IMG/VR virus record: IMGVR_UViG_3300017585_000052
Direction: 5' to 3' (one strand)
Length of the DNA: 64,000 nt
DNA from: a virus
Taxonomy: Duplodnaviria > Heunggongvirae > Uroviricota > Caudoviricetes
The position numbers and the translations under genes are program-made. Position 1 is the first letter of the stretch. Each line of letters starts with the position of its first letter. The notes under the pieces were generated by a model that saw only the letters and a program-made list of their open reading frames with translations, was not told the origin of the DNA and did not search any database. Shown piece by piece: positions 2,376 through 26,331 of the stretch.

Positions 2376-2448
2376 ACGGTATAAATGACGGTGTTATACC
2401 GTTCCTATTGGAACGTAATTTGTACCGCTATACAAGGTGATGAATATG

Positions 2449-2952
2449 AATCCCGGAAAACAATTTGAAAAGAATTTTGCCAATTCCGTACCGAAGGATG
2501 TTTACTTTATGCGGATTAAAGATTCAGCAAATAACTTTATGAGGACTTCTTCCTCCGCTTTTGCTACGAGCAACCCTTTTGACTGTTTTATGTTATATGA
2601 TGGAAACTTTATTCCAATAGAACTAAAAAGCACAAAAGGAACGAGTTTTAGTTTTTAGACAGAAGCGTGCGAAGATGGCAAAGATATTAAATATCACCAA
2701 ATTAAAAGTTTAGTTTAGGCTTAGACTTTTAAGAATGTTATTGCTGGATTTGTTTTTGATTTTCGTAATAGTGATACTTATTGGATGAGTATTACAGACT
2801 TTTATAAATTCTATTGCGAGACCTCTAAAAAAAGCATAAATGAGCAAGATATTATAAATAATAATGGAGTAGTAATTGACAAGAGACTTATGAAAGTCAA
2901 TTATAAATATGATATACAAGGGCTTTTAGATAATATAACGTCTAAAAGGTGA
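2449..2952 (+). CDS. putative PD-(D/E)XK family nuclease
   Basis: FDCFMLYDGNFIPIELK resembles a D..(E)xK nuclease core. Frame continues through TAG at 2656, 2719 and 2725 to TGA at 2950. Confidence 0.35.
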
Positions 2953-2983
2953 TGATATACTGTTACGTTAGGAGGTCTGATAA

Positions 2984-4060
2984 ATGGGACGAGGAACAGT
3001 ATACAATAATCTCTATACGCCTGAGATTTGGGCGAATGTTAATCCTGAAAACAAGGCTTTGTTAGATGACTTTGTTGCATACAAGAGAACGTCTGATAAA
3101 TCACCTCAGACGATAGAGCAATATTATCAAATGATACGCTTGTTCTTTTGTTGGAACTATACTTATAATAACAACAAATTCTTTGTAGATTTGAAAAAGA
3201 GAGATTTGGTTAGATTTTTCTCTTATGCAGTCGAAGTTATGGGTTGGTCATCTAATAGAACAGCAACAGTTAAATCTGCTTTAAGTTCGATGAGTAATTA
3301 TATTGAGAATATACTTGATGATGAGTACGAAGATTTCAGAAATATAGTTACTAAAATTGAGACAAGCGTTAAACAGCCAGTTAGAGAAAAGACTGTTCTC
3401 TCACAAGAGCAAGTAGACGATTGCCTAAATAAGTTGGTTCAAGCTGGAAAATATCAAATAGCTTGTTATATGGCTTTGGCTTGCGCTTGTGGAGCAAGAA
3501 AACAAGAGCTATTGAGATTCAAGGTCGATTATTTCAAGGACGAATATATTGAGTTTGGTTGCCTTTACAAAACTCCTGAAAAAATCAAAACTAAAGGTCG
3601 TTCATCTAAAGGGAAAATGATTTATAAGTATACATTTGTTAAAATGTTCAAACCGTATTTCGATTTATGGATGGATTACCGCAAAGAACATGGAATTGAA
3701 TCTGAATGGTTATTTGTTGTAAGGGATGGCGAAGGCGGTTATAGACAAGCCAGCGTTGCCTCGGCAAATAACTGGTGCGATGTAATTAGTGATATATTGG
3801 GAGAACCTTTTTATTCTCACGCCGCTCGTCATAGATTTGTTACTATGATGAAAGAAGCTAAACTTCCTGACGGAGTTATTGTCGCCATTATGGGTTGGGA
3901 AACAAGAAACGGTTCTGGTTTAAGCATGGTTGGAATTTATTCTGATTTAGATGAATCTGATATGCTTGCTGATTATTTTGATGAAGATGGAATTAAAAAG
4001 GATATTAAGGTTGGGACTATAACAGATATTGGTGGAACACAACCTAATTATAATAGGTAA
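2984..4060 (+). CDS. int: tyrosine recombinase / integrase
   Basis: Box I ACGARKQEL; box II HAARHRF; C-terminal GW..G.SMVGIYSDL with candidate catalytic Tyr. No internal TAG; strong RBS. Confidence 0.8.
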   Translation: MGRGTVYNNLYTPEIWANVNPENKALLDDFVAYKRTSDKSPQTIEQYYQMIRLFFCWNYTYNNNKFFVDLKKRDLVRFFSYAVEVMGWSSNRTATVKSALSSMSNYIENILDDEYEDFRNIVTKIETSVKQPVREKTVLSQEQVDDCLNKLVQAGKYQIACYMALACACGARKQELLRFKVDYFKDEYIEFGCLYKTPEKIKTKGRSSKGKMIYKYTFVKMFKPYFDLWMDYRKEHGIESEWLFVVRDGEGGYRQASVASANNWCDVISDILGEPFYSHAARHRFVTMMKEAKLPDGVIVAIMGWETRNGSGLSMVGIYSDLDESDMLADYFDEDGIKKDIKVGTITDIGGTQPNYNR

Positions 4061-5312: not shown

Positions 5313-5343
5313 GGAGGTGGAGTAATTGGCAGTAAATGACATT

Positions 5344-8300
5344 ATGTTTTAGATTGGCCTTGGTATCAATGGGCAGCAAGCCCAAGTTGACATGGAGGAC
5401 GTTATTGACAAACTTTGTAAAGCTGTCGAAAATGAAGGCATAACAGTTCCTGTTAATATAGATAAGACGGCAGACGATGCGCTAGAACAATTAAATAAGT
5501 TCCTGCAATCTATTGGTGCGCGTGTCAATGTTGTAAAAGACTCAACAACTGGCCTTATATCAGCTATCAACGTAGGAATACCAAAAGCCAATGGGCAATG
5601 GGCTAATCTTCACCAGACAATAGTAGACGTTGGGACTGCTATTAACGGTGTGACTAAACTTGAAAGCGGAGACATTTTTTCGGTTCTCAGTGGCTCTGAG
5701 CAGTCTGGGACAAGAGCGACTTCACTGATAAATGAAGTCGTAAGTCTAACACAGAAAAGAATAGACTTGCAAAAACAACTTGCGAACGAAATTGTTAATG
5801 GAGATTCAAAAGCTCAGACCAGTTTACAAAACCAAATCACAAAAGTACAACAAAAAATAGACTTAAAGACAGAAGAAATACAGCAATATCAACAAGAAGC
5901 TAATGCACTTGGAGCTACAACTGATTATATAGATAATCTTAACGCAAGAATATCTGAACTTCATCAATTAACTGGTCAAGAAAATTTTGTTTTAGGTAGT
6001 TCGACAGATTTATAGAATCTAAACACAAGAGTGAAAGATATTACTTCTACTCTGCAAGAATTTTCTGATATTGCTAAAAAGGCTCTAAATTCAAGTTCCA
6101 ATGATTCCACCTTTAAGTTTTATATAGGGCAGTTGCAAGCCTTGTCTCCTGAGATTGATTCAATTAAACAAGATATGGAGAATCTCGGAGTAACATTTGA
6201 CAAGCAAGGCGCACATTACACTGGAAATCAACAAGCCTTACAAAATCTAACAGAGGCTTATAATAAATATGCGGCAGCGGTAAATGAAGTTGGTACTAAG
6301 GTTTCAGAGAAAAATGCTATTGCCAATCAAAAGCAAGACATTCAAGAACTTAGCACAGCATTGACTGAATACTACAAACATAAAAAGTAGCTTGAAAATG
6401 CCGACACCAACGCAACTAAAACAGTTGAGCAAGCGGCATTACAACAACTTGAACAGAAATATGGAGATATATTAACTCGTGTTCAAGCGTATTCTAACGC
6501 TTTGTCTCAAACTGGACAAACTTCTACGCAAGTATATTCCCAAAATACGCAAGCCGCTGAGAAATTAGTCCAAAAACAGAAAGAGTTACAAAGTTCCCTT
6601 GAAAGAACACAAGCTATTAACAAGGACGCTGCTGACGATGCTGCCATAATTGAACAAACGGTTCAAGCGTATAAGGCGTATCGTGATTAGCTTGATAAGG
6701 TATACGCTCTAAAAAAAGAAAACGCCACAGGCGTTGATATTAAGTCAGAAACGACTCAATTAGAGCAATTAGAAAAACAGTATAAAAATTTAGAGCAAAC
6801 CGTACTGTCTAATGGAGAAGCTGTTAGATAGAATACGGAATATAATAGAGACAAAAACCAAGTGACGCGAGAGTCTATTCAAAATCAGAAAGCTCTCAAT
6901 GTTACAATGCAAAACCAGAGTTTGTCAGATTTGGTAGCTGAAACTATTGAGTACACCGTAAGTTTGTAGAGTTTACAGAAAGTCCTCGAAAGCGTAAAAG
7001 ATGAAGTATTTTCTCTAAATGAAGCAATGACTAATATCAGATTAGTTACTGGTGATACGGCAGAAAATACACGAGAACTAATGTCAACTTATTCTGACAT
7101 CGCAAAAGAGCTTGGTTCAACGACAACAGCAGTTGCCGAGTCCGCTGATAGCTGGTTGAGACAGGGCTATACGATAGAAGAAACCAATGAACTAATTGAA
7201 GCATCTTCAAGTCTTGCCACTATTGGCGCAATGTCAGCAGAAGATGCAAGCACGAGTCTAATTTCTGTTATGAATGGTTATAAAGTTTCGGCAGAAGATG
7301 CGATGAGTATTGTTGATAAATTGACAACGCTTGATATTAACCTTGCAAGTGGTTCGGATGATATTGCTATCGCAATGAGTAAGACTGCCGCTTCTGCCGC
7401 CGATGCTGGTGTTGAGTTAGATAAAATGCTTGCAATCCTTGGAGTCACTTAGGACAGGACTCAACAAGCTGCCGAAACTATTGGTAGAGCTTGGAACTCC
7501 ATCTTGCAACGAATGAACAAGATTAGCGCTGGCAAGGATGTCTCTGACACTGGCGCCTCCCTAAGAAAATTTGGGGCATTATAGAAATATAATGAAAATT
7601 CTCTCTAATGATTATCTTTATTAGATATGCTTGAAAACCCGATTGGACGGGCAACAGGGAGGAAGATTATGAAATCACCTTGAACGACTAAATGAGAGAA
7701 CCATATATAGATATATGGATGTGATAGTCTGAACACCGATATATTCCAATTATACAAGTCGGTGAGAGATGGTCGAGCGTAAAGACGCTCTTGGAAGTAC
7801 CATCTCCGCTTATCTTTTAGATAAGTTATAAAGTAACAGAATGAAATGATGTTGATAAGGTACTTTCTAAGGTCGGTATTAGCCTTCGTGATGAAAACGG
7901 TATTCTTCGTGAGAGCGGAGAGGTTTTGGACGAGATTGCTGCCAAATGGGAAACACTCGACAAGAATCAACAATCTCAGGTTGCAACGGCAGTTGCGGGT
8001 ACAAACCAAGCTAATATATTCAGAAGCACGATGGCGAATTACGATATGGTGTTAGAGCAGACCGTTGCTTCACAAGAAGCAAGCGGCTCCACTATGGAGC
8101 GTATGGCTGTCTACACTGAATCGCTCGAAGCTAAAGTAAATAGACTCAAAACCTCATGGACTGCCCTTGTTAATGATTTAGACTTACAGGGCATATTTAG
8201 TGAGGCCATTGATTTAGCGACAAGAGCTATTGAGGTACTCGATTATATATTAACAAAAATTCCCGGAGTGTCAGAATTAGTACAAACATTATTAAAACTC

Positions 8301-11300
8301 GAAGCCGTCAATGTTGTATTGGGCGGTATATCTAAAGCTGCCAACCATTTACTTGGAGCCGATGGTATTGGTGGATTATTCAGTGGATTTTTGGACTTCA
8401 AGGTCGTACTTGAAGGAATAAACAACGGCATGACTAAAACTGTTGTAGGTTTTACAAAAGGTGCAAGCGCGTCAACTATTCTCGGCAATACTATTGGAAC
8501 CATGGCAAAACAATTTACTGCTGCTGGTGGTGGAATTACTGGCATAGTTTCTGCAATAAGTTCTTTTGTCAGCTTGCATCCAGCAATAACTGCCGTTGCT
8601 GTCGCACTTGGAGCAGCATATGCAGCATACAAGATTTGGGATGCAAACTTTAATCCCGAAACAAAGATTGAAAATGCCAAAGAAGCGTACCAACAGTATG
8701 CTGACGAAATTACCGAAATCAACTCTTAGATTGCAGAGCTTGAAGATAAATCCGAGGCAATAACTTCGCAAGAAAACTTGACCTAGGCTCAAAAAGATTA
8801 TAATGTCGAGCTTGAAAAGACTATTGCCAATCTCAAAAATGAAAAAGCCGCCAAAGAAGAAATGCAACTCACTGAATTGCACAATTAGGCTTCGGCAGAG
8901 GGGGACGAGGCTCGTTCTACAAGTTTTTGGACTGGCAAATCAGAATACGATTCTACCCTTCAAGATATAAAGTACGCGCGTACAGATAAAGATAAATCTG
9001 AGGCAGAAGAAGAAGCCAATGATTTAATCGACACATACGAGAGCTACATAGATACTTTAGATGCTGTTGTCGAGGCTGGCGGGGAACTTACTGACGAGGA
9101 AAAAGAAAACCAAGAACTGTATGAAGAACGCATACAAACCCTGCTTATGCTCACTGACGAGACACAAGCATATGCAAGAGCAATAACCAATAATGATGAT
9201 ATTGCATCTAAATTGTCTGAGGTAAAGCAGAAAATAACAGACAATGCCACCGCTTACCAAAAGGCCCGCGAGGTAATTGAACAAGCCGTCACGGATGAAA
9301 TCAATGCTTCTGGTAAATAGTATACCGCGCAAGAGCGTGTTAATTTAATATACGAGGCTACCGAGCAGATTTTAAGCAACTACGGCTTTACACTCCAATC
9401 TGTCGCAGATAATAATGACACCGTTACAGACTCCTATTCTTCGCAAGCAGAGGCAATGGAGTCATATATAAGCACAATCAAAAGTCTTGAATCGAGCGAA
9501 GAAACGCTTTAGACTGCATTTAATGAAATGACTGAAAGCGGAGAAATTCAGGCAGATACAATGTCTGATTTGATTGCCGCTTATCCAGAACTTGCTAACT
9601 CCGTTGAAATCGTTGATGGAGCAATGCAGATTAACCTCCAAACTCTTAGCGACACAGCTTCTGCACAATACGAAACCGCAGCAGCAGCAGCAGAGGCGCA
9701 AGCCAATAATACTGAAGCGGTAATGAATCAAGTCTCTGCTCGACTGGAATTATATGGTATAGAGGCGCAAGCACTTTCGGCACTTGCTGGCGGTCAAATG
9801 ACTGCAAATCAAGCGGCGTTACAAGCGGCAGACTAGGCGGTAAAGACTGGACAAATCTCCGAAGATGAGTATGATATAATCTACAATGGAGCCGCTGCTG
9901 CCGCCGAACAATATGTTGGCCTTGCAGAAGGCATGGCGCAAGCTCAAAAGAATATCGAAGCTCTTAGAGCAAAAGCAAGCGGTGGGCTTTCTTATACTGG
10001 TTCTAAAAGTAAGTCATCTGGCAGTTCCTCTGGGAGCACGGCAAAAGACGAAGCCTCCGATGCTCGTAAAGAGGCGTATGACCTCGAAAAATCTCGTTAC
10101 GAGCAAACCCAGAACGAATTAGAACTTGAAAAATCTAAACTTGAAGCGCAACAAGATTAGATTGAGAATGAAAAGTCTGCGTTAGAAATAAAGAAGTCTG
10201 AATTAGAGTTACAAAAAGAACTCAAAGAGCAACAATTAGAAGTATTACAAGATGAAGAAGATTCTTTGGATAATATCTTGGATTTGATTAAAGAAATGAC
10301 AGACCAAGATTATGAGAACCTAAAGACTAATCTTGAAAACATATCTGACTATATTGACACATTCCGAGATGTTCTTTCTGACGTTAAAGACACCTACGAT
10401 GATATTGTAGATGACGCTAAAGAAAAATTAAAAGCAGAAAAAGAAGCCGCTGATAATCAAAAGAAGCTACAGGAGAAATCTCAAAAGGTTGCAGAAATTC
10501 AAGCTCAACTTGCAGAGATTCAATTCGATGATTCTTCTGATGCACAGAACAAGAGGGTAGAGTTGACTTCACAACTGAATGAAGCCATGCAAGACTTAAA
10601 TGACGAAGCGTCTGATTAGGCTTACGACACTGCTGTTGACGCCTTAGACAATACGGAAGATAAAGTCGATTAGGTTTTTGAAGCTATTGATACGATACTC
10701 GAATCTTCTCAGGGTGTAATAGAGGAATATGTCAATTATATTTCTGACGTATTACAATCTGACGGTAATTTGTACCAAGCTGCGTTGGCTCAATTTAGTG
10801 CTGCTGACGAACAATCTCGTCAAGAGCTATATAATAGACTACAAGAATATAATGCACAATATGGTGACGGTATCGAAGCTAATGTCACTAAGAAGTGGGA
10901 AGATGCTCTAACTGCATATAATAAGTACGCAGAAGCCACTGGTTCTACCGATACTGGTACTATACGTAATTATATGTAGACTCAGGATAATACTCTAACC
11001 GCAAGCATTAAAACTGATGAGCAAGCTATTAACACTTTAGATAACCAAATTAGCCAGCTTGAAATAGATATAAGCAAATTCGACCAGTCTATTTCTGATG
11101 TTGAGTCTCAAATCAATAATGTAAAATTGGCTTTAGACCAATTAGAGATAGATTATAACGGTCAGGAATTAACTATATCTGGTGTTACTGCTGCCACACA
11201 AGAAGAAATAAATGCAAAGGCTGGTGTAACTGCCGCTACTAATGATAATACAACCGCATTAAATGACAATACAGTTGCACAACAAGAAGAAGAACAAGTT

Positions 11301-12032
11301 ACAACTTAGGTCGCTGACGCTATGAGTGACACCGAGTATAGTGCCACTGGTGCATCTGACTCGTTAGACAAGGTAGATTCTTCTGCCTCAAATGCAGACA
11401 CTGGACTTGGCACACTGACTTCAAGTGCCGATGCTGCTGCTGGCGCATTAGACGGAGTTGCCGCTTCTGCGTCTGGGGTAGACACGGGAACTTCTTCTAC
11501 TGGCAGCACAAGTACATTAGGCAATCTATTTACATTCTTAACTGGTGGTGGAGATTTGTCGAACGTATTTGCGAGTTATCTTGGTAGAGCAATAACTAAA
11601 TATGTTCCTAAAGGAATCAAGGCTTTGGCAAGTATTGCCGTTGCATCTAATCATGAAGGAACAGATTATGTTACTAAGGCCAATTCTTGGTTGGATGACA
11701 TGCTGGGATTAGGCAATGATGAAACCGCTCGTGTCCTTAAAGTCGGTGAAGCTATTATCCCTGATTACGCAAACAACATATCACTTACACAAGTAGATAA
11801 ACCGTTTAGCGGAGCGTCCGCTATAAATCATCCTAATACTTCAAATATATCTAATAGCAACAGTTCTCTAAACATTGATATGGGTGATTTGGATATTAGT
11901 GGAATTGATAGCGAAGCGTTAAGAAACGAGTTACAATCTATTAAGAACGAAGCTACTGACGAAGTGTATAGCACTTTGTATCGCTATATTAAAGTTGGCG
12001 GTTATCGCAATGTAAGAAGATTATACGCATAA
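5344..12032 (+). CDS. tail tape measure protein, TAG-recoded and interrupted by an intron-like insert
   Basis: About 20 ORF fragments share one frame (mod 3 = 1 up to about 7580, mod 3 = 0 from about 7857), separated only by in-frame TAG. Terminal stop is TAA at 12030. Classic tape-measure motif KVGISLRDENGILRESGEVLDEIAAKW at 7866; alpha-helical Q/A/E-rich composition. Confidence 0.7.
7585..7850 (+). other. putative self-splicing (group I-like) intron in the tape-measure gene
   Basis: TAA/TGA stops in all frames and a reading-frame change between flanking exons. Strong local hairpins GAGATGGT...ACCATCTC and GAGCGT...ACGCTC. Boundaries are approximate. Confidence 0.35.
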
Positions 12033-12130: not shown

Positions 12131-13022
12131 ATGGCATTGATGGGTTATCCATTTATATTTGACGATATTCCATCGGAGTTCTATGGATGTTCTATTGCTT
12201 TCTTAGATGAGGACGCAAATAAGCGCAATAGTGGTTCTGGTAAAACATTCACCACTATTACACCGTTGCGTTCTGGTAAACAAATTCTTATCAACTCTAC
12301 TCAGGATTAGGCGTTGTCATTTGGAGTAGAGATACTATTTGACTGCCCGACAGACATCCATACATTAACAAAGGTAAAATCTTGGCTTTCTTCGCCACTA
12401 ACTTTTAGAAAATTAAGAATATGCGCAGACTTATTCGACCAATATTACTATAATTGCTATTTCACATTGAATTAGGACTTAATATATATTGGCGGCTATC
12501 GAGGTGTGTCTGCCACTGTGACTTGTGATGCGCCTTGGGCATGGGAGAATCCTAAAACAATAAATCTAACAAGTGGTGTTACAACTACATTCTATAATGA
12601 ATCTGAGGATGAGGAACTCATGAAACCTATATTGAAGTTCACTACTGCGAGTTCTTCCTCTTATGTTATTATCGAAGTATACAATGAAGATTATTCATTT
12701 GATAGAACTACCACCATATGTGCGCTTGCTGGAAAGACATTAAGTTATACGCAACAAAACGGCACAACTGTGAGTTATACTACGCCAGACTATTCTAAAT
12801 CATGGCTAAGTATAGAAAATGTCACTTTGGACAATGGCTCTGGAATATTTACTTCTACAAATTCGAGTGGAGAAGTAGTTACAGGGCTTAGAAGAATACA
12901 AGGGTTTAACAAGGTATTCTTGTTCATACCTAAAGGTAAATCATATATTAAATTTACGGCAAGCGCTGTGACAAATGCCAAGATTATATATTAGAATATA
13001 AAGAGAATCGGAGGTGGTTTCT
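12131..13022 (+). CDS. distal tail protein (Dit)-like
   Basis: First gene after the tape-measure gene; RBS AAGGTGGTGA. In-frame TAG at 12308 and 12464; stop TAA. Confidence 0.45.
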
Positions 13023-16000
13023 ATTAAGACTTCATTTACTTTTGGTGGACGTTATCGTTACCCAGAACTGATATTGTGTAACCCAAATAAATCCATGCTT
13101 GGTTATCTAACAAATATTAAGAATCTAAAATTCACGCTTAGAAGTATGGACGTTTCAGAAATGACTTTTGATGTGTACCGTACTGATGGAACGGCTGAGT
13201 TTGATGATTATAGGTATGTTAGGAAAATGCGGCTCATTCATGTTGAAGAAATGGGATATTTCGTAATATAGGAAGTAAAAGAGGTTCTTGGTGACATTGT
13301 TCCGCATAAAGAAGTCACTTGTTATTCCGCTGAATATATGTTAAACTACAAGCCAGTTAATCTAACAACAATTACTTCTATAACTGGCGGGACAACCACA
13401 TTTGCTAAAAGCTATAAGTTCTATGACCAAAAATATCCTGACACTACGCTGATGTATATGTTATTTACAGCGGCTGGATTTACAGACTGGAAATTTGATT
13501 TTAAGTCAATCCCAGAAGTTATTTTGGACAGGTATCGTTCTTTTGATGATACTGGCGATGGATTATATGGATTTTTACAAAATTACGTTTCAACGGCGTA
13601 TGACTGTGTATTTACTTATGATATAGAAAATTACGAAGTAAGCGTCCACACCAAAGAAGAACTTGTTACCCCGTCAAGCGTATGTCTGTCTTTTGATAAT
13701 CTTCTCCAACAGGCTAACATTACCGAACTGTCTGATGAAATTTCAACCATCCTTGCGGTCAAGGGTTCTGAAAATATGAGCCTGTCTCGTATTAACCCAA
13801 CGGGCACAAACAATATCTATAATTTTGACTATTATCTTGGCAAGTATGATTATGACGGGAATCAAGATGACCACTGGCAAGATTGGATTGACGAGAACTT
13901 TAGCGTAACGTCAGTAAAGTTTGACGACAACGGAGATATAGTTTGGGCTACCTCTACTGTCCCAGCAAAAACCACCACTACATTTATAGACCATGTAGAG
14001 CTTTGGCAATAGCAGATTTACAAGCTCATAATGAGTTCTAACAAGCAAGGCTCTTATGCGTGGTTATTAAAGCTGTACACATATCTAAATGCAAAGTATG
14101 TCTATATGACAGCTCAATAGCAATATGCTGAGTATATTTACAATTATTGTACAGAGGCTATCTCGACATACCAAGAAGAAACGAAAGAAGTCAAAAAATC
14201 AAGCTGGCTTACAATACTAATTGGCGCTGGTGTTGCTCTCGCAGTCGTTGCTGGTGTTGCTCTTGCTGCGTTTACTGGCGGCGTATCACTCGCCGCAGTT
14301 GGTACAGCGCTTGCTGGAGGCGGTGTTGCTGTTGCTGAAACGCTTGGACTTTCAGGTGCCGCTGCTACCATCGTTGGTGTTGCTGGATAGGCGTTATTTA
14401 CTGCTGGTGTCTCTACTGCATTTAGTGGACTTTTGCAACTCGGTTTAACCACTTATCAAACTAACATTACAAAAGAAGAAATGCAAAAGTACCAAGGTGT
14501 AGCTCAGAGTAATCTAAATGCAATCAGAAGTGGTAATGGTTATTATTACAATCTTACTCCTTCTACTATCACCAACTTAGCTTCTGGTACATATGGGAGT
14601 TTTGTTGTAGACGAGCCACTGTATTGGGTTTCTGGCACATATAATTCAAGCAGCGAAGATTCAATATACCAAAAAGTTCCTACTGATAGTGGTGTATCTT
14701 CTACTACTACTTAGATTTATTGTATAGACGTTCTTGAAAAGAAAATAGATTATGTTACAGACCAAATAGAAAAATACATTAACGTGTATGCCTACAAAAA
14801 TTGGTTTAGCACAAAAGAAAAAGAAACTCTCGAACCGTTCTTAATTCAGAGTGAATACACCGATGAGAGTTTTACTGCCACCGATGATGTTGACGTTAAA
14901 AACGCAAGCGACCCTCAAACTTATGTCGCCACAAGCCAAGGCACTATGACAATAGAAGAATATAATAACGCCACTAGTGGTTATTATGCTGAATATGTTT
15001 GTGCTGGTGACACTGTAAATTATAAAGCTACTCCTTATGTCATCAATGAACAATAGGTTCGTTATTGGATGGCGAATAATACTTCTGGCACTGAATATTC
15101 TCAATACAAGAATAATCTGAGCAAACTTCACGGCTCTTTCTATATTACCTATGATGGTTCGGGTTGGAGTGTGAGCGACTCTACTGGACAAATTGGTTAT
15201 GTTAGCAAATATGGTAGTGCATACCCGTCAGATATGGGTATAACAGCCAATACACATGACGGTTCTTATACTTATACTCCGCAACGCAACGACTATATTC
15301 TGTTGAAACTGTATTCTGATGAGATAGAAATTATAGATACTACTATAATTGCAATGCAATTAGCGCAGCAGGGGTATGATGTACTCGAAGAATGTAGTCA
15401 ACCAGCTTTTGGCTTTGATATATCATGCGCAAACTTTATCTTATTGCCAGAATATACAGAGTGGACAGAGGATATTGGATTTAATATCGGCAATATAACT
15501 CTCGGTACTGAAATTACTGTAATAGATAACAGCGGTACCGTATACAGACCGTTTGTACAAGAGATGTCGTTTGAATACGATAACCCTGACAGTTTACAGT
15601 TTACATTTGGAAATAAGTTTGCACTTGGTAAAAGTGAGTTCACTCTTGGACAATTACTTTCCGAGACTACAAGTTTGGCGCAGAGGACTCAAAGGACTCT
15701 AAGCGCTTATGGAGACTCTACTTCTACTTCAACTTATTCTAATTCAACTGTTACTCAGGGAGTACAAGAGCAAATAGACAAAGCAAATCAAACAGATGAA
15801 GATTTGCAAAAACAATTAGAACAAGAGCAGGCTGCTCTTAGAGCAGAAGATGCTCAAATACGGGCAGAACTTGACGCGCAAGAAGAATAGTTCAACACGG
15901 ACATACAAAACGAACGTACTGCAAGACAAACGGAGATTCAAGATTTGTAGGCCCAACTCGATAATGTATTGGAATATATTCAAAATATGGACATAACTCA

Positions 16001-17045
16001 ACGCATAGCTGATGCAACAAGTTCGATGAACAACTCTATGGCTGGTGGGCTGGGGCTGTATTGTACTCAAATCACGGAAAGTAATGGGTCTATTAAGTAT
16101 TGCTACCATGATGGCGCAACTATGGCAAGTAGTAAAACATATTATTACTATACATCTAGTGGGTATGCCTATGCAACTTACGAAACTCCCGGTATTATTA
16201 CAGAGTCTAACATTGAAAGTTGGACTGGTTGGCAATACGGGATGACATCTTCGGGCCTCATGATAATGAACGAGATATATGCCCATAAGATTACAGGTGA
16301 TTTAATAGAGGCCAACACTATAACCTCTATAAACTTAGGTGCGAGTTGTATAAATGCTTCTAATATTAACGGCAAGATTATAACCGGTGATTTGATAGAG
16401 GCTAATAGTATATACGCTGATAACTTATCTTATGATGCTGTGTTTAGAAAAATATGGTAGCAATCGCTTAGTTCAATGTCAGGTGGTTATACAATATCTA
16501 TGACTACTGACGCAGAGGGAAATTCCATCAGTGGTTTTTATGGAGCTATTGTATATACCGCTGGGAGTAAGGATTTTACGTCAGCAATTTGTACAGTCAA
16601 CAATATAACTTCACTAATTTCGCTAGTTTCTTCGGCTGCGATAGGCGGTACTTATGTTTATTCATCGCGATTCATTGGTGCTAACTCTGGTGAAGTCGCT
16701 TCAACTAATAGCGGCTCTTATGACACTGTTAGTTGTAGAAGCTTTAAGTATATTTATAGTTCTTCAACGAACCGCTATTTATATTTTTATGATAACTACA
16801 CACTTGCGTTTGGAACATTCAAGGTAGCTGGTAAGTCTTGGGGAATGACCGTTGGAATTTCCTTATGTACCTGTCTTTGTCCCAGTACAGGATGCGGTGC
16901 CACGTTCTGGAACGGTGGCGCTGGGCCAATTTGGGAAAGTTTCTGCGGGGTAACGAGTGGCTCTACTAACGTGTTGCCAAAACGTACCCGAAACAACTAT
17001 TACAATATTCCTTGGCGTGTATATGGATTTAAGATTGGATTGTAA
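13014..17045 (+). CDS. Tal-like tail-associated protein / receptor-binding giant protein
   Basis: GTG start. N-terminus RYRYPELILCNPNKSMLGYL..FDVYRTDG resembles the siphovirus Tal N-terminal domain. One frame from 13014 to TAA at 17043, interrupted only by about 9 in-frame TAG. C-terminus has ITGDLIEAN repeats and a Cys/Gly-rich tail. Confidence 0.45.
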
Positions 17046-17063
17046 CGAGGGGAAGTGAACTAA

Positions 17064-18740
17064 ATGCCAGATTTAACTAATATTGCTATTGTTGCTGTAA
17101 TGGACAACTTAGGTAATATTCATAAAATAAACTACGAGACGCTGGAGAATTTGCCGGGAGCTATCAAAAACCCTTATTCCATTACAATATTTGGGTAGAC
17201 TTATGATGGCAGCAACAGCGTGACTATTGCCCCAACAGTTGCAAGCGCAACAGAACTTGGCTGCGTAAAGCCAGTAGCTAAAACTTCTGCAATGTTACAG
17301 GCCGTTGGTGTAGATTCCAACGGATTGCTATATACGCAAGGCGTAACGATAGATACAGTTGTTATGCGCAACAGCTCCTCTGCTGTTAGCGGTAACGCTG
17401 TTTACTCGTTTGTTGACACAAACCTTTCTGCTGTTTCTTCTTAGATGTCAGACTTAAAAGATGAAATTACAAGTGAGTATGAAACAGCAGACACTAAACT
17501 ACAAACGCAGATAACTTCAAACGATACAGATATTTCAACATTATAGGGGAATGTCACCACTATTAACACGTCTATTTCGGGCGTAAAAACCGACATGAGT
17601 TCGTTGGAAACAAAACTGCAAAAAGAAATAGATGCTAATACTACGTCAATCACAAATAATTACAATACGCTGACGGCAAAGAACACTTCACAAGATACCG
17701 CTATTTCTACTAACGCTTCAAATATTACAACTAATGCTACTGAAATATCTAACACAAAAGTTTCACTTAGCTCCGCTATCGAACGCATATCTGCTAATGA
17801 AACAGATATATCTAAATTACAATCTAAAGAAACGGGTAAATTTTTCAGCACAGAAACAGAACTTATAGATTACGCTGCTTCAACTGGCGCAAAAGATTTA
17901 GTTGTAGGCGAAGAAATGTATGTTACTGGATAGACCACATACTTCTATGTGTGGAATGGGACTTCTGCAATAAAGTATATTACTCTTGCTGGTGAAGATA
18001 ACTTTATGGCAAAAATAAACCCTGTCGGAACTGGATTCTTCAAGATGAATAGCGAATCTGGAAGTATTGGGTCAAACGGTGTTAGCCTTGGTGATAACAA
18101 TTCTTAGAACGGAACTTGTGGTTTCACTATTGGCTATGGACTAATAGAAAATATAGATTACGGTGGAGCTATCGGTAAATATAACGCTACTCCGTCCGAT
18201 GATGAATTATTTTCTGTCGGCTATGGCGATGATGACGATAATAGGAAAACTCTTGTAAGATTAACCACGGAAGGTACTCAAAAATATTACGGCGACATTG
18301 TGGCCTATTCTTCTGATATAAACTCAACTAAAGAATTTAACGAAGAATTATCTACTTACCACTATTCTCAAATTAAAGGTGAAATTATTAAAGTCTCCGT
18401 GGATTATGACACATTTATATCAAAAATCACTAAAAATGATTCTAATGCCTATACATTTGAATATATTTTAGACACGGACAACATAGGACATTGGCAATCC
18501 GATAGCTTTAACTTTAAGCCGGATATTCAATGGAGCGGTATAAACTATTATCCAATAAGTACGATAGGTATTTCTACAACTGATTCTGAGGGTAATGCCT
18601 ATTCCAGCTATGGAGTAGGAGACAAAATTACTATTAGATTAGTATATTCTTCTGAGATTAGTATGTATCAATTATACAGTGCTTTTACTAAACTTGGTCT
18701 GTATATAGATGAAGATGGCGATGTTTGCCAATATGATTAA
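17064..18740 (+). CDS. tail fibre protein
   Basis: Frame continuous through about 6 in-frame TAG. Fibre-like Ser/Thr/Asn repeats (ISTNASNITTNATEISNTK). Ends LYIDEDGDVCQYD with TAA. Confidence 0.6.
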
Positions 18741-18793
18741 CTTTTTTGATATATAACTTTTGTTTCAAATCATAAATTGAAAGGAGGGCTGCT

Positions 18794-19164
18794 ATGTATT
18801 GTGAATATGACAAATATCTTGTTCATTTGCATACAAGAGAGATAATCCAAGGAGACACTTGTGTATTTGCCTATCAATTTACAGATTAGGACGGCGGCGC
18901 AATAATTCCTACTGCCAGTCAGTTCTCATGGAAGTTATGTACTTATGATTACTATGATGAAGCTGTCATATCAATTCCAGCATCTTCTTCTTAGATTACG
19001 GTAGATTCCTCCACGGGAATTATTTATTTAACATTAACTGCTGCTAATACTTTAACATTGCAAAATGGCAAATACATACAGCAGCCAGTTCTTACATATG
19101 ATGGAACCCCATACATTAGGGCATGGGGAGAAATCATTGTTAGAAGAAAGGTAGGTGGAACGTA
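18794..19164 (+). CDS. hypothetical structural protein
   Basis: RBS AAGGAGGG. In-frame TAG at 18887 and 18992. Stop TAA overlaps the next ATG (TAATG). Confidence 0.45.
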
Positions 19165-19689
19165 ATGGTGAATAGAGCAATGGCTACACTTGTGAATCAA
19201 TTTATGTTTGGGCAACTTGGGATAGCTACCGCTCCTGACACATGGTATGTAGGAATATTAACTTTAAGTATTCCAACTACAAGTTTAGATGGCGATATTA
19301 GTGGAAAAGAGTTGGATTTAACAGGATACTCTCGTGTAGCTTTGGCAAATACATCAGATAATTTTACTGTGACAAGTTCTACCTCTATACTAAGTTATGT
19401 CGTTAATAAAAACGATATTATATTCCCCAAAATTGGTGGTAGCACTAATGGCACAGTCGCAGGATTTTTCCTGTCTGACACTGAAACTGGCAATGCTTAT
19501 ATCTGGGGGAATATGGCGACTACAAGAACAGTATATACTAATTCTGCTGTCGTTATTAAAGCTGGCGCTTTACAATTTGGATTAAGCAACGCTGGTTCTG
19601 GCGGCACTTCTGTCACTGGATTGTCCGTTGACGAAGATGGTATTCTGTCTGGTGTTTCTGCGGTATCTGCAACTGGCGTAATGTCGTGA
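19165..19689 (+). CDS. hypothetical structural protein
   Basis: Intact ORF; stop TGA. Confidence 0.5.
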   Translation: MVNRAMATLVNQFMFGQLGIATAPDTWYVGILTLSIPTTSLDGDISGKELDLTGYSRVALANTSDNFTVTSSTSILSYVVNKNDIIFPKIGGSTNGTVAGFFLSDTETGNAYIWGNMATTRTVYTNSAVVIKAGALQFGLSNAGSGGTSVTGLSVDEDGILSGVSAVSATGVMS

Positions 19690-19699
19690 GGTGGTATAA

Positions 19700-19900
19700 A
19701 TGTTTTATGACACCAAAGGCTTTATAGTTGAACAAATACCACTGTTTGACAGAACAAGAACACTTTCTGTCATCGGCGCACAAAAACCAGCGACTATCCA
19801 CATTGATAACTTAGATAGAAAAACGTATATAACCGATGCTGGTTTTGATACGTATTTCTGGTCTAATGTTTATGACTCTCTAATTTCGGATTTCTCGTGA
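19700..19900 (+). CDS. hypothetical protein
   Basis: RBS GAGGTGG; stop TGA. Confidence 0.4.
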   Translation: MFYDTKGFIVEQIPLFDRTRTLSVIGAQKPATIHIDNLDRKTYITDAGFDTYFWSNVYDSLISDFS

Positions 19901-20100
19901 CGGTCTTATTGGGGATATTGCGCCTCTCACTATCGGTGATGTTGGGGCAAGAACCATATTTTCTATTACGAGATGGGAGTTAGAATAATACCCGAACTCA
20001 AAAGTGCTATATAGCACAGTCATCTTATCCATACGTAAGACTATTCATCTTTTACATGAAGAAAATTCTTTGTATGGGGGGGGGGTGAAATCAAGCAACG

Positions 20101-21018
20101 ATGAAAACAGTGAAAGAACTAATAGATTACAGCCCACCAAGACGATTTTCTATGCAACAGTGTTTTGAAATCATAATCAGAGAACCGTCAACAAGACGCA
20201 CAATTTGTGTTTTAGATGATTGTAAAACTACTAACCTTGAAAACACAATAGAATTAGTCTATTAGATGGGCGGTGCTGGAAATGCTCTAATCGGTGGCGC
20301 GTGGGGACATAGTAAACGTGCCACATTAACGGTTGAGTCTGCCACATACAGCACTGATGTAATGGCGTTGCAGAACGGAACAAATGTAGAATATGGGTCT
20401 CAGACAATCACCGCATTTGATATTTTGGATATAGATTCAGATTTCAAAGACGGTGTAAAATTAAAACATACTCCTATTTCAACTGGTGGATATGATATTG
20501 GTTACGTCTATCTCTTAGGAGATGACGGGAGTATCGAAAATAAACTAATTCAGGGAGATGTAGCCATCTCAGGACAATTTATCTGTAATAATGATACTTT
20601 GTATTTTGCGGACGGCGATGTAGCAATCGGGGATAAAGTCTGTTGCTCATATTCGTATACTTCTTCTAATGATAGTACAAGAATCACCAATAAAGCAGGC
20701 TCTATGCCAAAAATGGCTCTGATTACTGCTATCGGTGTCGCAAAGGATATTTGCTCTGGTGATATGTGGCCTTGTCAATTAGAAGGACTTGTCCAGATTG
20801 GTGGAGCATCCAATCTTGATTTAAGTGCGGACGGAGATACGATTACACAATCAATCACTATGGAATTTGTCACAAGATGTAATTCCAGAAGTATGTATCA
20901 ATTTGTGGTTTATCCGCAAGATGAATACAGAGGTGCTTTGATTTACGATATAGCTCCGCTGACAATAGGTTTTATTGCACCTATGACAATAGAAGAAATT
21001 ACCAAATGGCCTATCTGA
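20101..21018 (+). CDS. hypothetical structural protein
   Basis: ATG 15 nt after a G10 tract. In-frame TAG at 20263 joins it to ORF 20266..21018. Stop TGA. Confidence 0.45.
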
Positions 21019-21133
21019 CCATTGTTACAAACGAAGCCTTCTTTAGATTACTTGACAATATTGTTTAATCCCCAACATATTATTTTAGTAGTCTAAAGTA
21101 TAAATAATTATTTATTTTACGGAGGTAAAATAT

Positions 21134-22339
21134 ATGGGAAAACTTTTGAGAGATGAAACTTATATCGAGCAGATGAACAAACAGAACGCGCTTCTGGAAG
21201 TTCTTGTTGCCGATAAGCTGGCGAGTGCTTCCGCTAATTGGGCAGAAATCGCCAAGATTATTAAGGGCGGTTATGGCTCTTATGTCTACTATCCCGGCGA
21301 CCAGTTCAGCGACACTTGGGCTGACGCTTATGCTACTGGCGGTTCAAAGGAGTACACTTATCCTTGGCACGTTGCATCCCATCGCACTGTTACCCTGAGT
21401 GATGGTGAGACTAAGAGCGGTATGATTATTCAGGCTCACTACGCTCATCCTTTTGGCGTTCAGTTTAGCCATCAGCGTGCTTTCCTTGCTTGCCCCTCTG
21501 GACTTGTTGCTGGCACGTATTATTTCACCATTGAATCTGCTTGGGGTACTAATGTTGCCGCAAACGATGTTGTTTGCTTCACTACTACTCAGTCCGTTCC
21601 GCAGGGCGGTTGTATCGCTGGTTGCTACGGCGCACCCGACCAAGCGAAATCTAATTGGCGTATTTATCTGTATGCCGCTGACCGCACTACGATTCTTGAG
21701 ACTATTGTTCCTACCTTTACCACTCCTGACAGCGGCACAAATCTCGGCACTCAGCATCTGAATAAGCGTGATGGGAACCTGAACTCCACTCAGGAGATGG
21801 CTTACGGTTGGAACCGTTGGTCTACCTCTGCGCTGCGTCAGTACCTCAATAGTTCTGCTGATAAAGGCGCGTGGTGGACTGCACAGGACGAGTGGGATAT
21901 TGCGCCTAACGAGCTTGCATCAAAGGCTGGTTTTATGGCTGGTCTGCCAGAGGAACTCGTGAACGCAATTAAGCCTGTTCAGGTCACTACTTACACCAAT
22001 ACCGTTCAGGATGGCGGCACTGCGGACATTACCTATGATAAGTTCTTCCTCCCTGCATTGCAGGAAATCCATGTTAATCCGCAGATTCAGGGCGAAGGCG
22101 AGGCATGGGAGTATTGGACTCAGGTTTCTGGTTCTGTTACTCCGCTGGCACAATACGGTACTTATTCTCAGATGATTACTTATGCAGTTGAGAATCATGT
22201 TAGTCCGCAGTATGTTCGTTTGCGTTCGGCGAACCGTGGCGGCGCGAATAATACGTGGATTGTCTACTCGTCTGGCTATGTCAACGTCAGCGGCGCTAGC
22301 GTCTCGAATAGGTTTTCGCCGGCCTGCGTCATCTGCTAA
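21134..22339 (+). CDS. retroelement target protein (variable C-terminal domain, probable receptor-binding protein)
   Basis: The C-terminal ~40 codons coincide with the variable repeat. Gene is GC-richer than its flanks. RBS GGAGG; stop TAA. Confidence 0.7.
   Translation: MGKLLRDETYIEQMNKQNALLEVLVADKLASASANWAEIAKIIKGGYGSYVYYPGDQFSDTWADAYATGGSKEYTYPWHVASHRTVTLSDGETKSGMIIQAHYAHPFGVQFSHQRAFLACPSGLVAGTYYFTIESAWGTNVAANDVVCFTTTQSVPQGGCIAGCYGAPDQAKSNWRIYLYAADRTTILETIVPTFTTPDSGTNLGTQHLNKRDGNLNSTQEMAYGWNRWSTSALRQYLNSSADKGAWWTAQDEWDIAPNELASKAGFMAGLPEELVNAIKPVQVTTYTNTVQDGGTADITYDKFFLPALQEIHVNPQIQGEGEAWEYWTQVSGSVTPLAQYGTYSQMITYAVENHVSPQYVRLRSANRGGANNTWIVYSSGYVNVSGASVSNRFSPACVIC
22207..22327 (+). repeat. 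variable repeat (VR) of the diversity-generating retroelement
   Basis: 121-nt match to 23155-23275. All ~15 differences fall at adenines of the template copy (AAC to GTC, AGC or GGC). Confidence 0.8.
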
Positions 22340-22479
22340 TCCCTACCCTAAAAGTGTGATGTTTAATTACACTTTTAGGGAATCCAGCCATGCGAACGCA
22401 TGGCGTATACAGAGTGACGTAAACGGTTAAAATAACCTTAAAAGGTCAATTAAATATTACTAAAACAAACTTGCCATAA

Positions 22480-22526
22480 CTTCTCTTTAGATGTACAAAG
22501 ATACGTCCGCGTTATCTAAAGAGAAG
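22480..22526 (+). promoter_or_regulatory. 13-bp perfect inverted repeat downstream of the target gene
   Basis: CTTCTCTTTAGAT..21 nt..ATCTAAAGAGAAG. A second small hairpin ACACGC/GCGTGT lies at 22554-22570. Could be a terminator or a retrohoming-enhancing structure. Confidence 0.45.
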
Positions 22527-22603
22527 TCTATATATAATTTTCTTTTAGATGTTACACGCAATGCGCGTGTTAAATTTCTATAAATAGATATTTACAAAGG
22601 AGT

Positions 22604-23113
22604 ATGATTATTATGTCAGTACCAGCGCATAGACGTGCGCCGAACAAGCTCACTGCTTTGGTTAAAGCTAGAGAACTTGCTTCTTATACATTAAAAATAA
22701 CTCAAAATCAAAACACGTTCCAGCCTAAAAACGGGACGGTTGTAAGAGATAAAGTGCAGTCATGCGCGGCTGACATATTTTTGCTTGCAAGTGATGCTAA
22801 TGATATTAACGTAAGTAAGAATCCTGATTTGCTTGAAAAGCGTCAGGAATTGCAAAAAGAAGCATTATATAAATGTAAGGCGTTAAAGAATCTCATTAGT
22901 TTAGCTGGTATAACATATCATTTGCGTGATAGACGGATTGCCTATTGGACGAGCTTAGTGGAAGAAACGTATGCGTTGCTAAGAAAGTGGTATTTAGCCG
23001 ATTGTAATAGATACGGCGCACCACTTACGCAAGAAAATGTTGTTGGCGTTTCAAAGAAATCTAATGCAAATGATATAAGAGCAAGCTCTTATGAAGATAA
23101 TTCTCCCTTTTGA
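22604..23113 (+). CDS. putative accessory variability determinant (Avd)-like protein
   Basis: Basic, helical ORF between the variable and template repeats. This position is typical for Avd. Confidence 0.4.
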   Translation: MIIMSVPAHRRAPNKLTALVKARELASYTLKITQNQNTFQPKNGTVVRDKVQSCAADIFLLASDANDINVSKNPDLLEKRQELQKEALYKCKALKNLISLAGITYHLRDRRIAYWTSLVEETYALLRKWYLADCNRYGAPLTQENVVGVSKKSNANDIRASSYEDNSPF

Positions 23114-23154
23114 AAGGATTGATTATATGATTAAGGAATGGAGTGAGGCTATGT

Positions 23155-23275
23155 GCAGAATGTTCGTTTGCGTTCGGCGAACCGTGGCAACGCGAATAAT
23201 ACGTGGAATGTCAACTCGTCTGGCAATGTCAACAACAACAACGCTAGCAACTCGAATAGGTTTTCGCCGGACTGT
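23155..23275 (+). repeat. template repeat (TR) of the diversity-generating retroelement
   Basis: Adenine-rich (AAC runs) counterpart of the variable repeat, immediately upstream of the reverse transcriptase. Confidence 0.8.
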
Positions 23276-23467
23276 ATTTTCAAAAATGGCCTATCGACAA
23301 GCATCTAATGATTGTACGGCGTGTGGGAAAACGCAGGGAGTCTCGCTACCATGTTATATCTGAAATTAAAATCTACGGATTAAACAGATAATAGATATAA
23401 CGAAACAATCATGGGGTGATGTCGTTGACTTGCGAGTTAGTACGGCTATACACATCCCATCAATTAT

Positions 23468-24571
23468 TTGTTTTTTCTAAATTCGAGGTGTTTACTCATC
23501 GAAAAGTTAGAACTAATTAGGAAGTATGGAGAAATAGATGTTTGTGATTTTGAGCATCTAATGGAATCAGAACACAAATGCGTAAAAGGTGTATTATGGA
23601 AAGGCTCTGTCGCGGCTTTTGATTTGAACAAAATTGCTTTGCTCAAAAAGTTGTCAGATGAATTACATAATGACACTTATCGCCCACTTCCTCCAAGAAC
23701 TGTTTTAATCACCTACCCTAAACGCAGAGTTGCTGTCAGCATAGCATTTCGTGACAGAATCTACCAAAGAAGTCTAAACGACAATATTGTCTATCCTCTT
23801 ATGACAAGAAGTTTCATTTATGATAACTGTGCTTGCCAAAAAGGAAAGGGTTCAGACTTCGCAAGGGGTAGATTAAAATGTCATATTCAGAAATGCTTTC
23901 GTAAAAATGGCATGGACTTCTGGGTATTGCAATGTGATATAAAACACTATTATGATAACATGAGACATGACACGACAGAAGCATTATTCCGTGAGCATTT
24001 ACCACCACGTTACGGGAATATGGTCGCTAAAGTTCTTAATGAACAGTATCAAGGTGATGTTGGGTTTAATCCCGGTAGTCAAATGATACAAATAGCGGGT
24101 ATCTCTGTTTTGGACAAGTTAGACCATAAGATTAAAGAGCGGATGCACATTAAACATTATTTGAGATATATGGATGACTTTATTTTGATGCACCCTGATA
24201 AAGAATACCTGTTACAATGTAAAAAGTGGATTAACGAGGAATTGTCCAAGATAGGTCTGTCTCTACATGAAAAGAAAACAAAACTGTATCATATCTCAAA
24301 AGGAGTTGACCTTTTGGGATTCCATTATAAACTTTTCAACACTGGAAAAGTAACAATGTCCGTACTTGGACAAAATGTAAAACATGAACGCCGCAAACTT
24401 CGCAAAATGGTTAAACTTGTTAAAACTGGTAGAATACCAAAAAGTAGACAACCATTAACCAAACAAAGGTTAGATATGTGCTATCAATCATGGAAAGCAC
24501 ATATAGCTCATGGAAATTCTCATAAGTTACAAGTACGAATGGATAAATTCTACAAAGATTTATGGAGGTAG
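23468..24571 (+). CDS. diversity-generating-retroelement reverse transcriptase
   Basis: Motif C YLRYMDDFIL (YxDD). GSQ variant of the GxxxSP motif, typical of retroelement reverse transcriptases. GVDLLGFHY. Annotated stop is TAG. Confidence 0.85.
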   Translation: MFFLNSRCLLIEKLELIRKYGEIDVCDFEHLMESEHKCVKGVLWKGSVAAFDLNKIALLKKLSDELHNDTYRPLPPRTVLITYPKRRVAVSIAFRDRIYQRSLNDNIVYPLMTRSFIYDNCACQKGKGSDFARGRLKCHIQKCFRKNGMDFWVLQCDIKHYYDNMRHDTTEALFREHLPPRYGNMVAKVLNEQYQGDVGFNPGSQMIQIAGISVLDKLDHKIKERMHIKHYLRYMDDFILMHPDKEYLLQCKKWINEELSKIGLSLHEKKTKLYHISKGVDLLGFHYKLFNTGKVTMSVLGQNVKHERRKLRKMVKLVKTGRIPKSRQPLTKQRLDMCYQSWKAHIAHGNSHKLQVRMDKFYKDLWR

Positions 24572-24575
24572 GATT

Positions 24576-24749
24576 ATGATTTTCACAAAAGCGAAAATGA
24601 CTCCTTACGAGGAAAAGATGGCTGAGTATCGCAATTCTCAAATCGAGGAACAAGGTTCTCAGATTGAGTATCTTGCTATTATGACCGATGTTGAGTTCCC
24701 TTCTGAGGAAACTACGACTTCTGGCAATGTGGATGAGGTGACTGAATAA
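24576..24749 (+). CDS. hypothetical small protein
   Basis: RBS GGAGGTAGG. TAA stop overlaps the next ATG. Confidence 0.4.
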   Translation: MIFTKAKMTPYEEKMAEYRNSQIEEQGSQIEYLAIMTDVEFPSEETTTSGNVDEVTE

Positions 24750-24904
24750 TGACTGAACTTAGCGCACATGGTATCAAGGTTAAGAAGTATTATGAGGCTG
24801 GCTACTGGAATAAACAGATGGTTTATAATGTAACTACTAAGGGTTACATTACCCCAGAAGAATATGAAATTATCATCGGGGAGCCTTACGCTGCCGCCAA
24901 CTAA
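24749..24904 (+). CDS. XkdX-like small phage protein
   Basis: Sequence ..YYEAGYWNKQMV..KGYITPEEYEIIIGE resembles the PBSX XkdX family. Confidence 0.45.
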   Translation: MTELSAHGIKVKKYYEAGYWNKQMVYNVTTKGYITPEEYEIIIGEPYAAAN

Positions 24905-24924
24905 TCTAAAGATGAATAAAGAAG

Positions 24925-25563: not shown

Positions 25564-25597
25564 CATTTAGATGTAACGATATAAGAGGTGAACCTAA

Positions 25598-25912: not shown

Positions 25913-25973
25913 TATCTAAATATGAAACATATCATATCCTAATATGATTTTTCTTTAGATGCAAAATAAAAAT

Positions 25974-26008: not shown

Positions 26009-26024
26009 GTTTTAATATTTTACA

Positions 26025-26330: not shown

Positions 26331-26331
26331 A

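Follow-up and report, generated by a model that had tools for sequence, protein, structure and literature searches.

How is one tape-measure protein (TMP) made from a gene whose reading frame breaks midway? The question is raised by a 64,000-nt stretch of viral DNA (IMG/VR record IMGVR_UViG_3300017585_000052, Caudoviricetes), called the window here, in which the TMP gene of a large phage is split by a structured segment. An earlier note had placed this segment at 7585-7850 and suggested a small group I intron in the TMP gene. The insert at 7563-7843 (281 nt, + strand, as are all intron features below) is indeed very probably a group I intron without an open reading frame (ORF). This identification is drawn from a colinear exon junction, the U7562.G7573 pair and terminal G7843, the R and S elements with a P3/P7 pseudoknot, and covariation within a family of related introns. 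The remaining doubt is mostly that splicing may have been lost.

Boundaries of the insert

The TMP frame upstream of the insert (mod 3 = 1) ends near 7606, where the earlier note put it, at TAA 7606-7608 followed by TGA 7609-7611. Homologous coding ends at 7562 and resumes at 7844, which replaces the boundaries 7585-7850 with 7563-7843. The intervening stretch has stops in all three frames, as claimed, but is 281 nt long rather than about 260 nt. Coding resumes in frame mod 3 = 0 with the motif that had been noticed, at 7844 and not at about 7857; the exon 2 frame reads NDVDKVLSKVGISLRDENGIL... from 7845, straight after TGA 7842-7844. The frame shifts by +2 across the insert because 281 is 3n+2.

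Excision of exactly 7563-7843 joins ...DTGASL|NDVDKVLSKVGISLRD, or in longer context ...ISAGKDVSDTGASL|NDVDKVLSKVGISLRD..., and restores the frame without a gap or an extra residue. Exon 1 ends in CT, the first two bases of a Leu codon that A7844 completes as CTA. The ligated mRNA would read ...GCC UCC CU|A AAU GAU... across 7562/7844. In DNA letters the predicted ligated junction is GCCTCCCT|AAATGATG (as a 30-mer, ACTGGCGCCTCCCT|AAATGATGTTGATAAG), and the predicted junction-spanning peptide is ...DVSDTGASLNDVDK..., containing residues DTGASLNDVDK. The unspliced junctions are CCTCCCT|AAGAAAAT on the 5′ side and CAGAATG|AAATGATG on the 3′ side.

A database search for homologs gave 34 relatives, and ten sequences were aligned around the junction. 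This comparison with uninterrupted homologs, proposed in the earlier note, located the junction: SL|ND aligns without gaps, and the sequences covering the region are continuous there rather than divided into two genes. Residues L222, N223, and D224 (numbering of a 376-aa segment in which the junction is residue 222) are nearly invariant. Two of the homologs, P0001 and P0002, are uninterrupted TMPs with 60% identity. The 153-kb contig that carries P0002 (L027) is syntenic with the window, with a RecU-like gene, an integrase, and then tail genes. A TAG-recoded ORF of 2093 aa encodes its TMP, with ...AAATCTTT|GAACGATGTT... at the position homologous to the junction, and the insert is absent at the DNA level.

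Protein colinearity allows two pairs of cuts, 7562|7563 with 7843|7844 or 7563|7564 with 7844|7845, because A7563 equals A7844. Both pairs give the same ligated mRNA. Only the first agrees with both the rule of a U at exon position -1 and the rule of a terminal intron G, and the intron is therefore set at 7563-7843.

The same alignments bear on whether two genes meet here. A pair of independent tape-measure-like genes with a structured spacer between them, for instance a regulatory RNA or a processing site, would fit a standard-code ORF list with many short ORFs in the region and an ORF caller that listed 7926-8729 as a protein in its own right (P0008). TAG recoding accounts for the fragmentation elsewhere, and the break lies midway in a single conserved domain at a point where homologs are continuous. 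One Pfam PF10145 (PhageMin_Tail) match spans the junction, covering residues 68-274 of the 376-aa segment and positions 3-201 of the 201-position profile, and a single TIGR01760 match spans it as well. In exon 2, TTG 7926 is the earliest in-frame start codon, and a gene that began there would lose 27 codons (7845-7925) that align with homologs. In 7300-8100, neither a promoter-like site on the + strand nor any terminator-like site was found. Two genes, one of the alternatives named in the earlier note, are extremely improbable on this evidence.

The earlier note's other alternative was a sequencing frameshift with an odd spacer. More broadly, the insert could have arisen through assembly or sequencing error, as a chimeric insertion or a frameshift, or it could serve some other form of recoding, such as translational bypassing or an intein. 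In favour of these explanations are that the window sequence is of metagenome type and that the frame changes by +2 across the insert. The same 281 nt are found in independent assemblies from two other samples, JGI 3300029968 and JGI 3300017520, with 281 of 281 positions identical; flanking DNA matches the window at 98.5% and 97.7%, respectively. A synonymous C-to-A change at 7557 is the sole difference in 481 nt across these two assemblies. An intein was rejected, as stops occur in every frame of the 281 nt. Known bypass gaps are far shorter than 281 nt. Bypassing was rejected on this length and on the covarying group I core in the insert, a feature that bypassing elements lack. This set of explanations carries almost no probability. 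A group II intron was also considered and rejected, as the E-value scan of 7400-8000 gave no match to a group II family.

RNA structure and intron family

The preferred reading, a group I intron, predicts a defined set of helices. P1 (7559-7565/7570-7576) pairs exon CCCU and intron AAG with the internal guide UUUGGGG in the sequence, the Rfam alignment, and the minimum free energy (MFE) fold, and it places a U7562.G7573 wobble at the 5′ splice site. A candidate P10, proposed from complementarity alone, would pair AUUU 7569-7572 with exon 2 AAAU 7844-7847. P2 (7577-7583/7588-7594; CAUUAUA, GAAA loop, UAUAAUG) is found in the Rfam alignment and the MFE fold. P3 (7599-7605/7694-7700; UUCUCUC/GAGAGAA) was assigned by helix parsing and family comparison. 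The 24-nt J3/4 (7606-7629) consists of a conserved UAAU followed by an insertion of about 20 nt, possibly forming a small hairpin. Within J3/4 lie TAA 7606 and TGA 7609, the in-frame stops at which the exon 1 frame ends without splicing.

The P4-P6 domain (7630-7681) comprises P4 (7630-7633/7655-7658), P5 (7638-7641/7648-7651), and P6 (7659-7662/7678-7681), which encloses P6a (7665-7668/7673-7676). Each of the four was identified by helix parsing, covariation, and the MFE fold, and each shows compensatory changes. P7 (7686-7690/7725-7729; GACUA/UAGUC), which the MFE fold predicts, is pseudoknotted with P3. The core elements R and S (GAACGACUAAAUG/GAUAGUCUGAAC) accompany this P3/P7 pseudoknot; the group I consensus is ..GACUA.A.. 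for R and ..AUAGUC.. for S. R (7682-7700) is composed of J6/7 GAAC, the P7 5′ strand GACUA, J7/3 AAU, and the P3 3′ strand GAGAGAA. S (7719-7733) is composed of J8/7 AUGUGA, the P7 3′ strand UAGUC, and UGAA. The alignment to the Rfam model RF00028 (Intron_gpI) puts CUUGAACGACUAAAUG on R and GAUAGUCUGAA on S. The R motif has a single exact match in the window, and mismatch-tolerant searches found R and S once each. No further intron copies were detected by R/S pattern searches of the window or by an Rfam E-value scan of 17000-26500.

P8 (7701-7718; CCAUAUA, UAGA loop, UAUAUGG) and P9 (7734-7764; CACCGAU...GUCGGUG) were assigned by helix parsing. A candidate P9.0 would pair U7730-G7731 with C7837-A7838. 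Three stem-loops follow in the MFE fold and by covariation: P9.1 (7766-7773/7799-7806; GAGAUGGU/ACCAUCUC, in DNA GAGATGGT/ACCATCTC), P9.1a enclosed within it (7775-7780/7785-7790; GAGCGU-AAAG-ACGCUC), and P9.2 (7809-7814/7820-7825; CUUAUC-UUUUA-GAUAAG). These are the three stem-loops described in the earlier note, all of which exist; the third has the loop TTTTA where the note gave TTTTAGA. The 3′ tail (7833-7843) carries the conserved GUAACAGAAUG and ends in omega G 7843, directly before exon 2.

In an unconstrained fold, the 300-nt RNA reaches -76.2 kcal/mol (z = -3.5), and none of 200 shuffles is equally stable. The MFE structure recovers P1, P2, P4-P6a, P7, P8, P9, P9.1, and P9.2. An E-value scan of 7400-8000 (601 nt) gave one match, to RF00028 at 7553-7764 (21.8 bits, E = 0.0027). 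The Rfam check proposed in the earlier note is thus weakly positive: a match is present, at a score below the gathering score of 50.

The 281-nt intron contains no homing endonuclease ORF. In the classification of Michel and Westhof, IA1 and IA2 introns reportedly carry extra helices, P7.1/P7.2, between P3′ and P8. Here P3′ (7694-7700) directly abuts the single hairpin P8 (7701-7718), followed by J8/7 and P7′.

Related introns were sought by exact-pattern scans for core motifs in viral contigs, metagenome contigs, and reference genomes. Eleven other distinct members of the intron family were recovered from viral and metagenome contigs, 12 including the window intron. In 185,579 reference genomes of bacteria and archaea, the exact core pattern had no matches. 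Blastn of the TMP region (6900-8600) against the GenBank phage collection gave no match, and blastn of one family member (L010) against the same collection matched one uncultured Caudoviricetes record and nothing else. MAFFT alone placed P5, P8, and L013 wrongly when aligning the intron cores; helices were therefore parsed by anchors, with rows padded with N and columns kept.

Across the 12 members, all 44 core pairs of P3, P4, P5, P6/P6a, P7, P8, and P9 are formed (100% of cells), and 21 of the 44 show changes on both sides. The core covariation score is 0.41; sliding the partners by 1-3 columns lowers it to 0.04-0.05, and none of 500 shuffles attains the observed values. P3 is nearly invariant (one C-G to U-G change) and P7 is invariant, which makes both uninformative. 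The signal comes from P4, P5, P6, P8, and P9; six of seven pairs have changed on both sides in P8, and likewise in P9. The P9.1/P9.1a/P9.2 module is also present in four other introns (L012, L033, and two in L023). Within these five introns, 14 of 19 pairs of the 3′ domain show changes on both sides: five of eight in P9.1, four of six in P9.1a, and all five counted in P9.2 (7810-7814/7820-7824). GUAACA(A/G)A recurs close to the 3′ end in family members. The L012 intron ends ...AAAGUAACAGAAUG|exon, the same as the window intron, and its P1 equivalent is GGGU|/GCCC at its own site. The strong structure claimed in the earlier note is borne out by the fold z score, the RF00028 match, and this covariation.

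Family members occur in other genes. The intron core (UUCUCUC...GAACGACUAAAUGAGAGAA...GAUAGUCUGAAC) interrupts NrdD in two unrelated contigs, L017 and L019, at Pfam NRDD profile position 414 in both. In L014, a family intron with an ORF inserted in P8 interrupts the ribonucleotide reductase (RNR) large-subunit gene. L007 has a family intron with an ORF upstream of P3, and in L013 a GIY-YIG endonuclease gene lies upstream of, and adjoins, a family intron. The nrdD, RNR, and GIY-YIG contexts are typical group I settings.

Several observations weigh against an intact group I intron at 7563-7843. The J3/4 insertion of about 20 nt is unique to the window intron, absent from the other family members, and could in principle impair folding. 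The RF00028 score stays below the gathering score; the match is lost in a whole-window E-value scan, and the gathering-threshold scan finds a tRNA only. L010 (6250-6700), a compact and clear family member, has no RF00028 match at E ≤ 1. The model is therefore insensitive to this intron subfamily, and Rfam-based virome intron surveys would miss these compact group I introns. With no P7.1/P7.2, the window intron misfits the IA1 and IA2 types of the Bacillus prophage TMP introns. The alignments were hand-fitted to helices, and 100% pairing is partly a product of this construction; the slid controls, and compensatory changes where outer positions are fixed, do not depend on hand-fitted helix lengths. 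Splicing itself is predicted from the sequence.

The J3/4 insertion, the sub-threshold Rfam score, and the absent endonuclease ORF would suit a decayed, splicing-incompetent group I remnant, with the TMP gene a pseudogene or the source of a truncated protein and the contig a defective phage. Such decay is very unlikely, as all family-invariant core positions are intact and 44 of 44 core pairs are formed. The intron is also identical in three independent assemblies while its flanks have diverged by 1.5-2.3%. Exon 2 is open over 1395 codons with TAG as its sole type of in-frame stop codon, which is unexpected downstream of a dead interruption.

For the functional group I intron, we infer that splicing occurs and is autocatalytic. 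The late transcript would fold into the group I core, P3-P8, with its P3/P7 pseudoknot. The guide UUUGGGG would pair with the end of exon 1 and set U7562.G7573 at the cleavage site. Exogenous guanosine would then attack after U7562, and the 3′-OH of exon 1 would attack after G7843 while a short P10 holds exon 2. Ligation of the exons would yield a single 2141-aa tape-measure protein; without splicing, translation would end at TAA 7606 and leave a truncated product. As it has no endonuclease gene, the window intron was presumably passed on by passive inheritance or mobilised by factors acting in trans.

Introns in tape-measure genes of other phages

The window TMP was mapped onto contigs of truncated homologs, with sites numbered by window TMP residues. 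Introns lie at 611|612 (L034, 5013-6180), at about 676 and 722|723 (L032, 4702-5087 and 5220-5618; L030, about 1553-2979), at the equivalent of 730|731 (L012, about 7086-7393), and at 798|799 (L033, 3775-4100). The window intron (7563-7843) lies at 746|747, a site found occupied only in the window's own phage. At least six intron sites, five besides the window's, fall within about 190 codons of the PhageMin_Tail domain. The TMP gene of L023 (reverse strand, about 1300-2450) carries at least three introns inside 1.3 kb. In related TMP genes, the PhageMin_Tail domain is a group I intron hot spot.

Two kinds of intron are found at these sites. The L012 TMP is distant (23% identity), and its intron shares the core and 3′ module of the window intron, with P1/P10 fitted to its own site. 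The L030, L032, and L034 introns are of a different, classical-looking type that carries UUAACUGCGGGAAA, CAAUCCGCA, and GGUUCAACGACUAU. The distance from the GACUA element to AAGAUAUAGUC is much greater in them, with extra sequence between P3′ and P8 that is read as candidate P7.1/P7.2. ORFs with PF24308 (DUF7487) lie within TMP-interrupting insertions at 227-943 and 1940-2947 in L030 and at 5351-6154 in L034. A classical-type group I core was read in the L034 insertion and in that of L030 1940-2947, and one is presumed for L030 227-943. These positions suggest that DUF7487 marks a family of intron-encoded (homing) endonucleases.

Group I introns in phage TMP genes have been known since 2008, and the window intron adds a new member. 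TMP genes of Bacillus cereus-group prophages carry the group I introns TMP-IVS1, IVS2, IVS3a, and IVS3b at three sites; several have no complete endonuclease gene, related ones occur at different sites with adapted P1/P10, and they are of type IA1 or IA2 (Tourasse & Kolsto 2008, PMC2504315). The window intron resembles them in host gene, in being a small group I intron, and in having relatives at different sites. The introns of the window, L012, L023, and L033 parallel that set, being related, differently placed, and site-fitted in P1/P10. The window intron differs from the Bacillus introns in having no P7.1/P7.2 and in belonging to a phage that reads TAG as sense. At least six sites in about 190 codons, as seen here, go beyond the three sites described in Bacillus prophages. 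The present case also adds an uncultivated TAG-recoded lineage, with a DnaE nearest to those of Firmicutes phages, to the phages that have TMP group I introns. Understanding of how such introns work is unchanged by these results.

The classical phage group I introns are those of T4 td, nrdB, and nrdD (sunY) and of Staphylococcus phage Twort orf142. The window intron would share with them guanosine-initiated two-step self-splicing, and it has in common the P1 U.G pair, the terminal G, and the R/S consensus. Its family also occurs in nrdD and RNR genes, as among T4 introns. T4 introns have endonuclease ORFs and IA2-type peripheral elements. The window intron, in contrast, is ORF-less and compact, and its P9.1/P9.1a/P9.2 module and GUAACAGAAUG tail are shared with few metagenomic introns.

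Group I introns have been documented in other late phage genes (PMC3706429, PMC4299906). Those of cluster J mycobacteriophages, one type of which has no ORF, occur in capsid and tail genes and were shown to splice in the course of late expression (Pope et al. 2013, PMC3706429). The window intron shares with these the setting of a late structural gene. The cluster J host genes are capsid and minor tail genes, in phages of another host phylum, and no sequence relation was detected.

Group I introns have been noted in stop-codon-recoded gut phages by Borges et al. (bioRxiv 10.1101/2021.08.26.457843) and, reportedly, by Yutin et al. 2021. In one example from Borges et al., the intron carries an endonuclease and interrupts an early gene of a phage that recodes TGA. 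The likeness to such recoded gut phages lies in self-splicing introns alongside stop-codon reassignment in uncultivated phages. Unlike that one example, the intron here is ORF-less and lies inside a late gene that is itself TAG-recoded.

TAG recoding and the surrounding genome

The TMP gene runs from TTG 5326, preceded by an AAGGAGG ribosome-binding site, to 7562 and from 7844 to 12032 on the + strand. Its 2141-aa product is encoded with 18 in-frame TAG codons, seven in exon 1 (5326-7562, frame mod 3 = 1) and 11 in exon 2 (7844-12032, frame mod 3 = 0 from 7845, stop at 12030-12032). Neither exon frame contains TAA or TGA, and the frames are continuous only if TAG is read as sense, a point that the earlier note does not raise. 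Under TAG-as-sense reading, short + strand ORFs merge into 5326-7608, 7845-12032, 13002-17045, and 17064-18740. In the + strand late module, in-frame TAG codons number nine in 13002-17045, five in 17064-18740, and three in 602-1651, in addition to those of the TMP gene. The - strand replication genes, including a DnaE-type polymerase and a primase-helicase, contain no in-frame TAG, and their ORFs are unchanged by TAG-as-sense reading; the integrase (2984-4060) likewise has none. In its late module, the window phage follows a code-15-like reassignment of the kind described in many gut phages. When window TAGs were compared with a relative's sense codons, Gln was the commonest partner (4 of 18), which is weak evidence.

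In annotation, the TMP gene is broken twice, by TAG recoding and by the intron, and gene callers give more than 10 fragments. The correct product would be one 2141-aa protein.

Recoding raises the question of whether splicing and the code are linked. Standard-code ribosomes would never reach the intron because exon 1 contains seven in-frame TAG codons. The unspliced exon 1 frame meets TAG 7582, within P2, and then TAA 7606 and TGA 7609; TAA 7606 is part of the family-conserved J3/4 UAAU just past the P3 5′ strand. Splicing could be coupled to the code switch, with a functional link between TAG read-through and intron folding. The intron would then be a second, RNA-folding gate on TMP synthesis, from a compact subfamily missed by RF00028 that colonises the six-site TMP hot spot. 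If so, ribosomes reading TAG as sense would pass TAG 7582, stop at TAA 7606/TGA 7609, and unwind P1-P3 of unspliced transcripts. This coupling is a speculative and unlikely extension of the intron reading.

No suppressor tRNA was detected in the window by cmscan or by ARAGORN, including relaxed settings whose extra output was junk. The cmscan alignment of the tRNA at 58244-58317 (- strand) had presented it as a CUA suppressor. This was rejected after ARAGORN and a recount of the anticodon loop, which give tRNA-Arg(UCU), the only tRNA of the window. Near it, 58111-58167 (- strand) gives a weak Rfam YrlA match (31.5 bits against a gathering score of 69, E = 0.0068). YrlA is a Y RNA-like family that contains a tRNA-like domain, and the match could be a degenerate tRNA-like element or chance.

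The window is laid out with the TAG-recoded late module on the + strand at 600-25000 and the - strand genes at 26000-64000. The closest DnaE matches are to gut 'Bacteriophage sp.' (47%) and Clostridioides phages (about 40%), and Bacillus phages are among the closest. Genes for a RecU-like Holliday junction resolvase and a tyrosine integrase (2419-4060) lie directly upstream of the tail and TMP genes, an unusual position for an integrase. The arrangement of RecU-like gene and integrase is matched in L027 (1-1459) and L034 (658-2248), and the integrase alone was recorded in L032 (651-1748).

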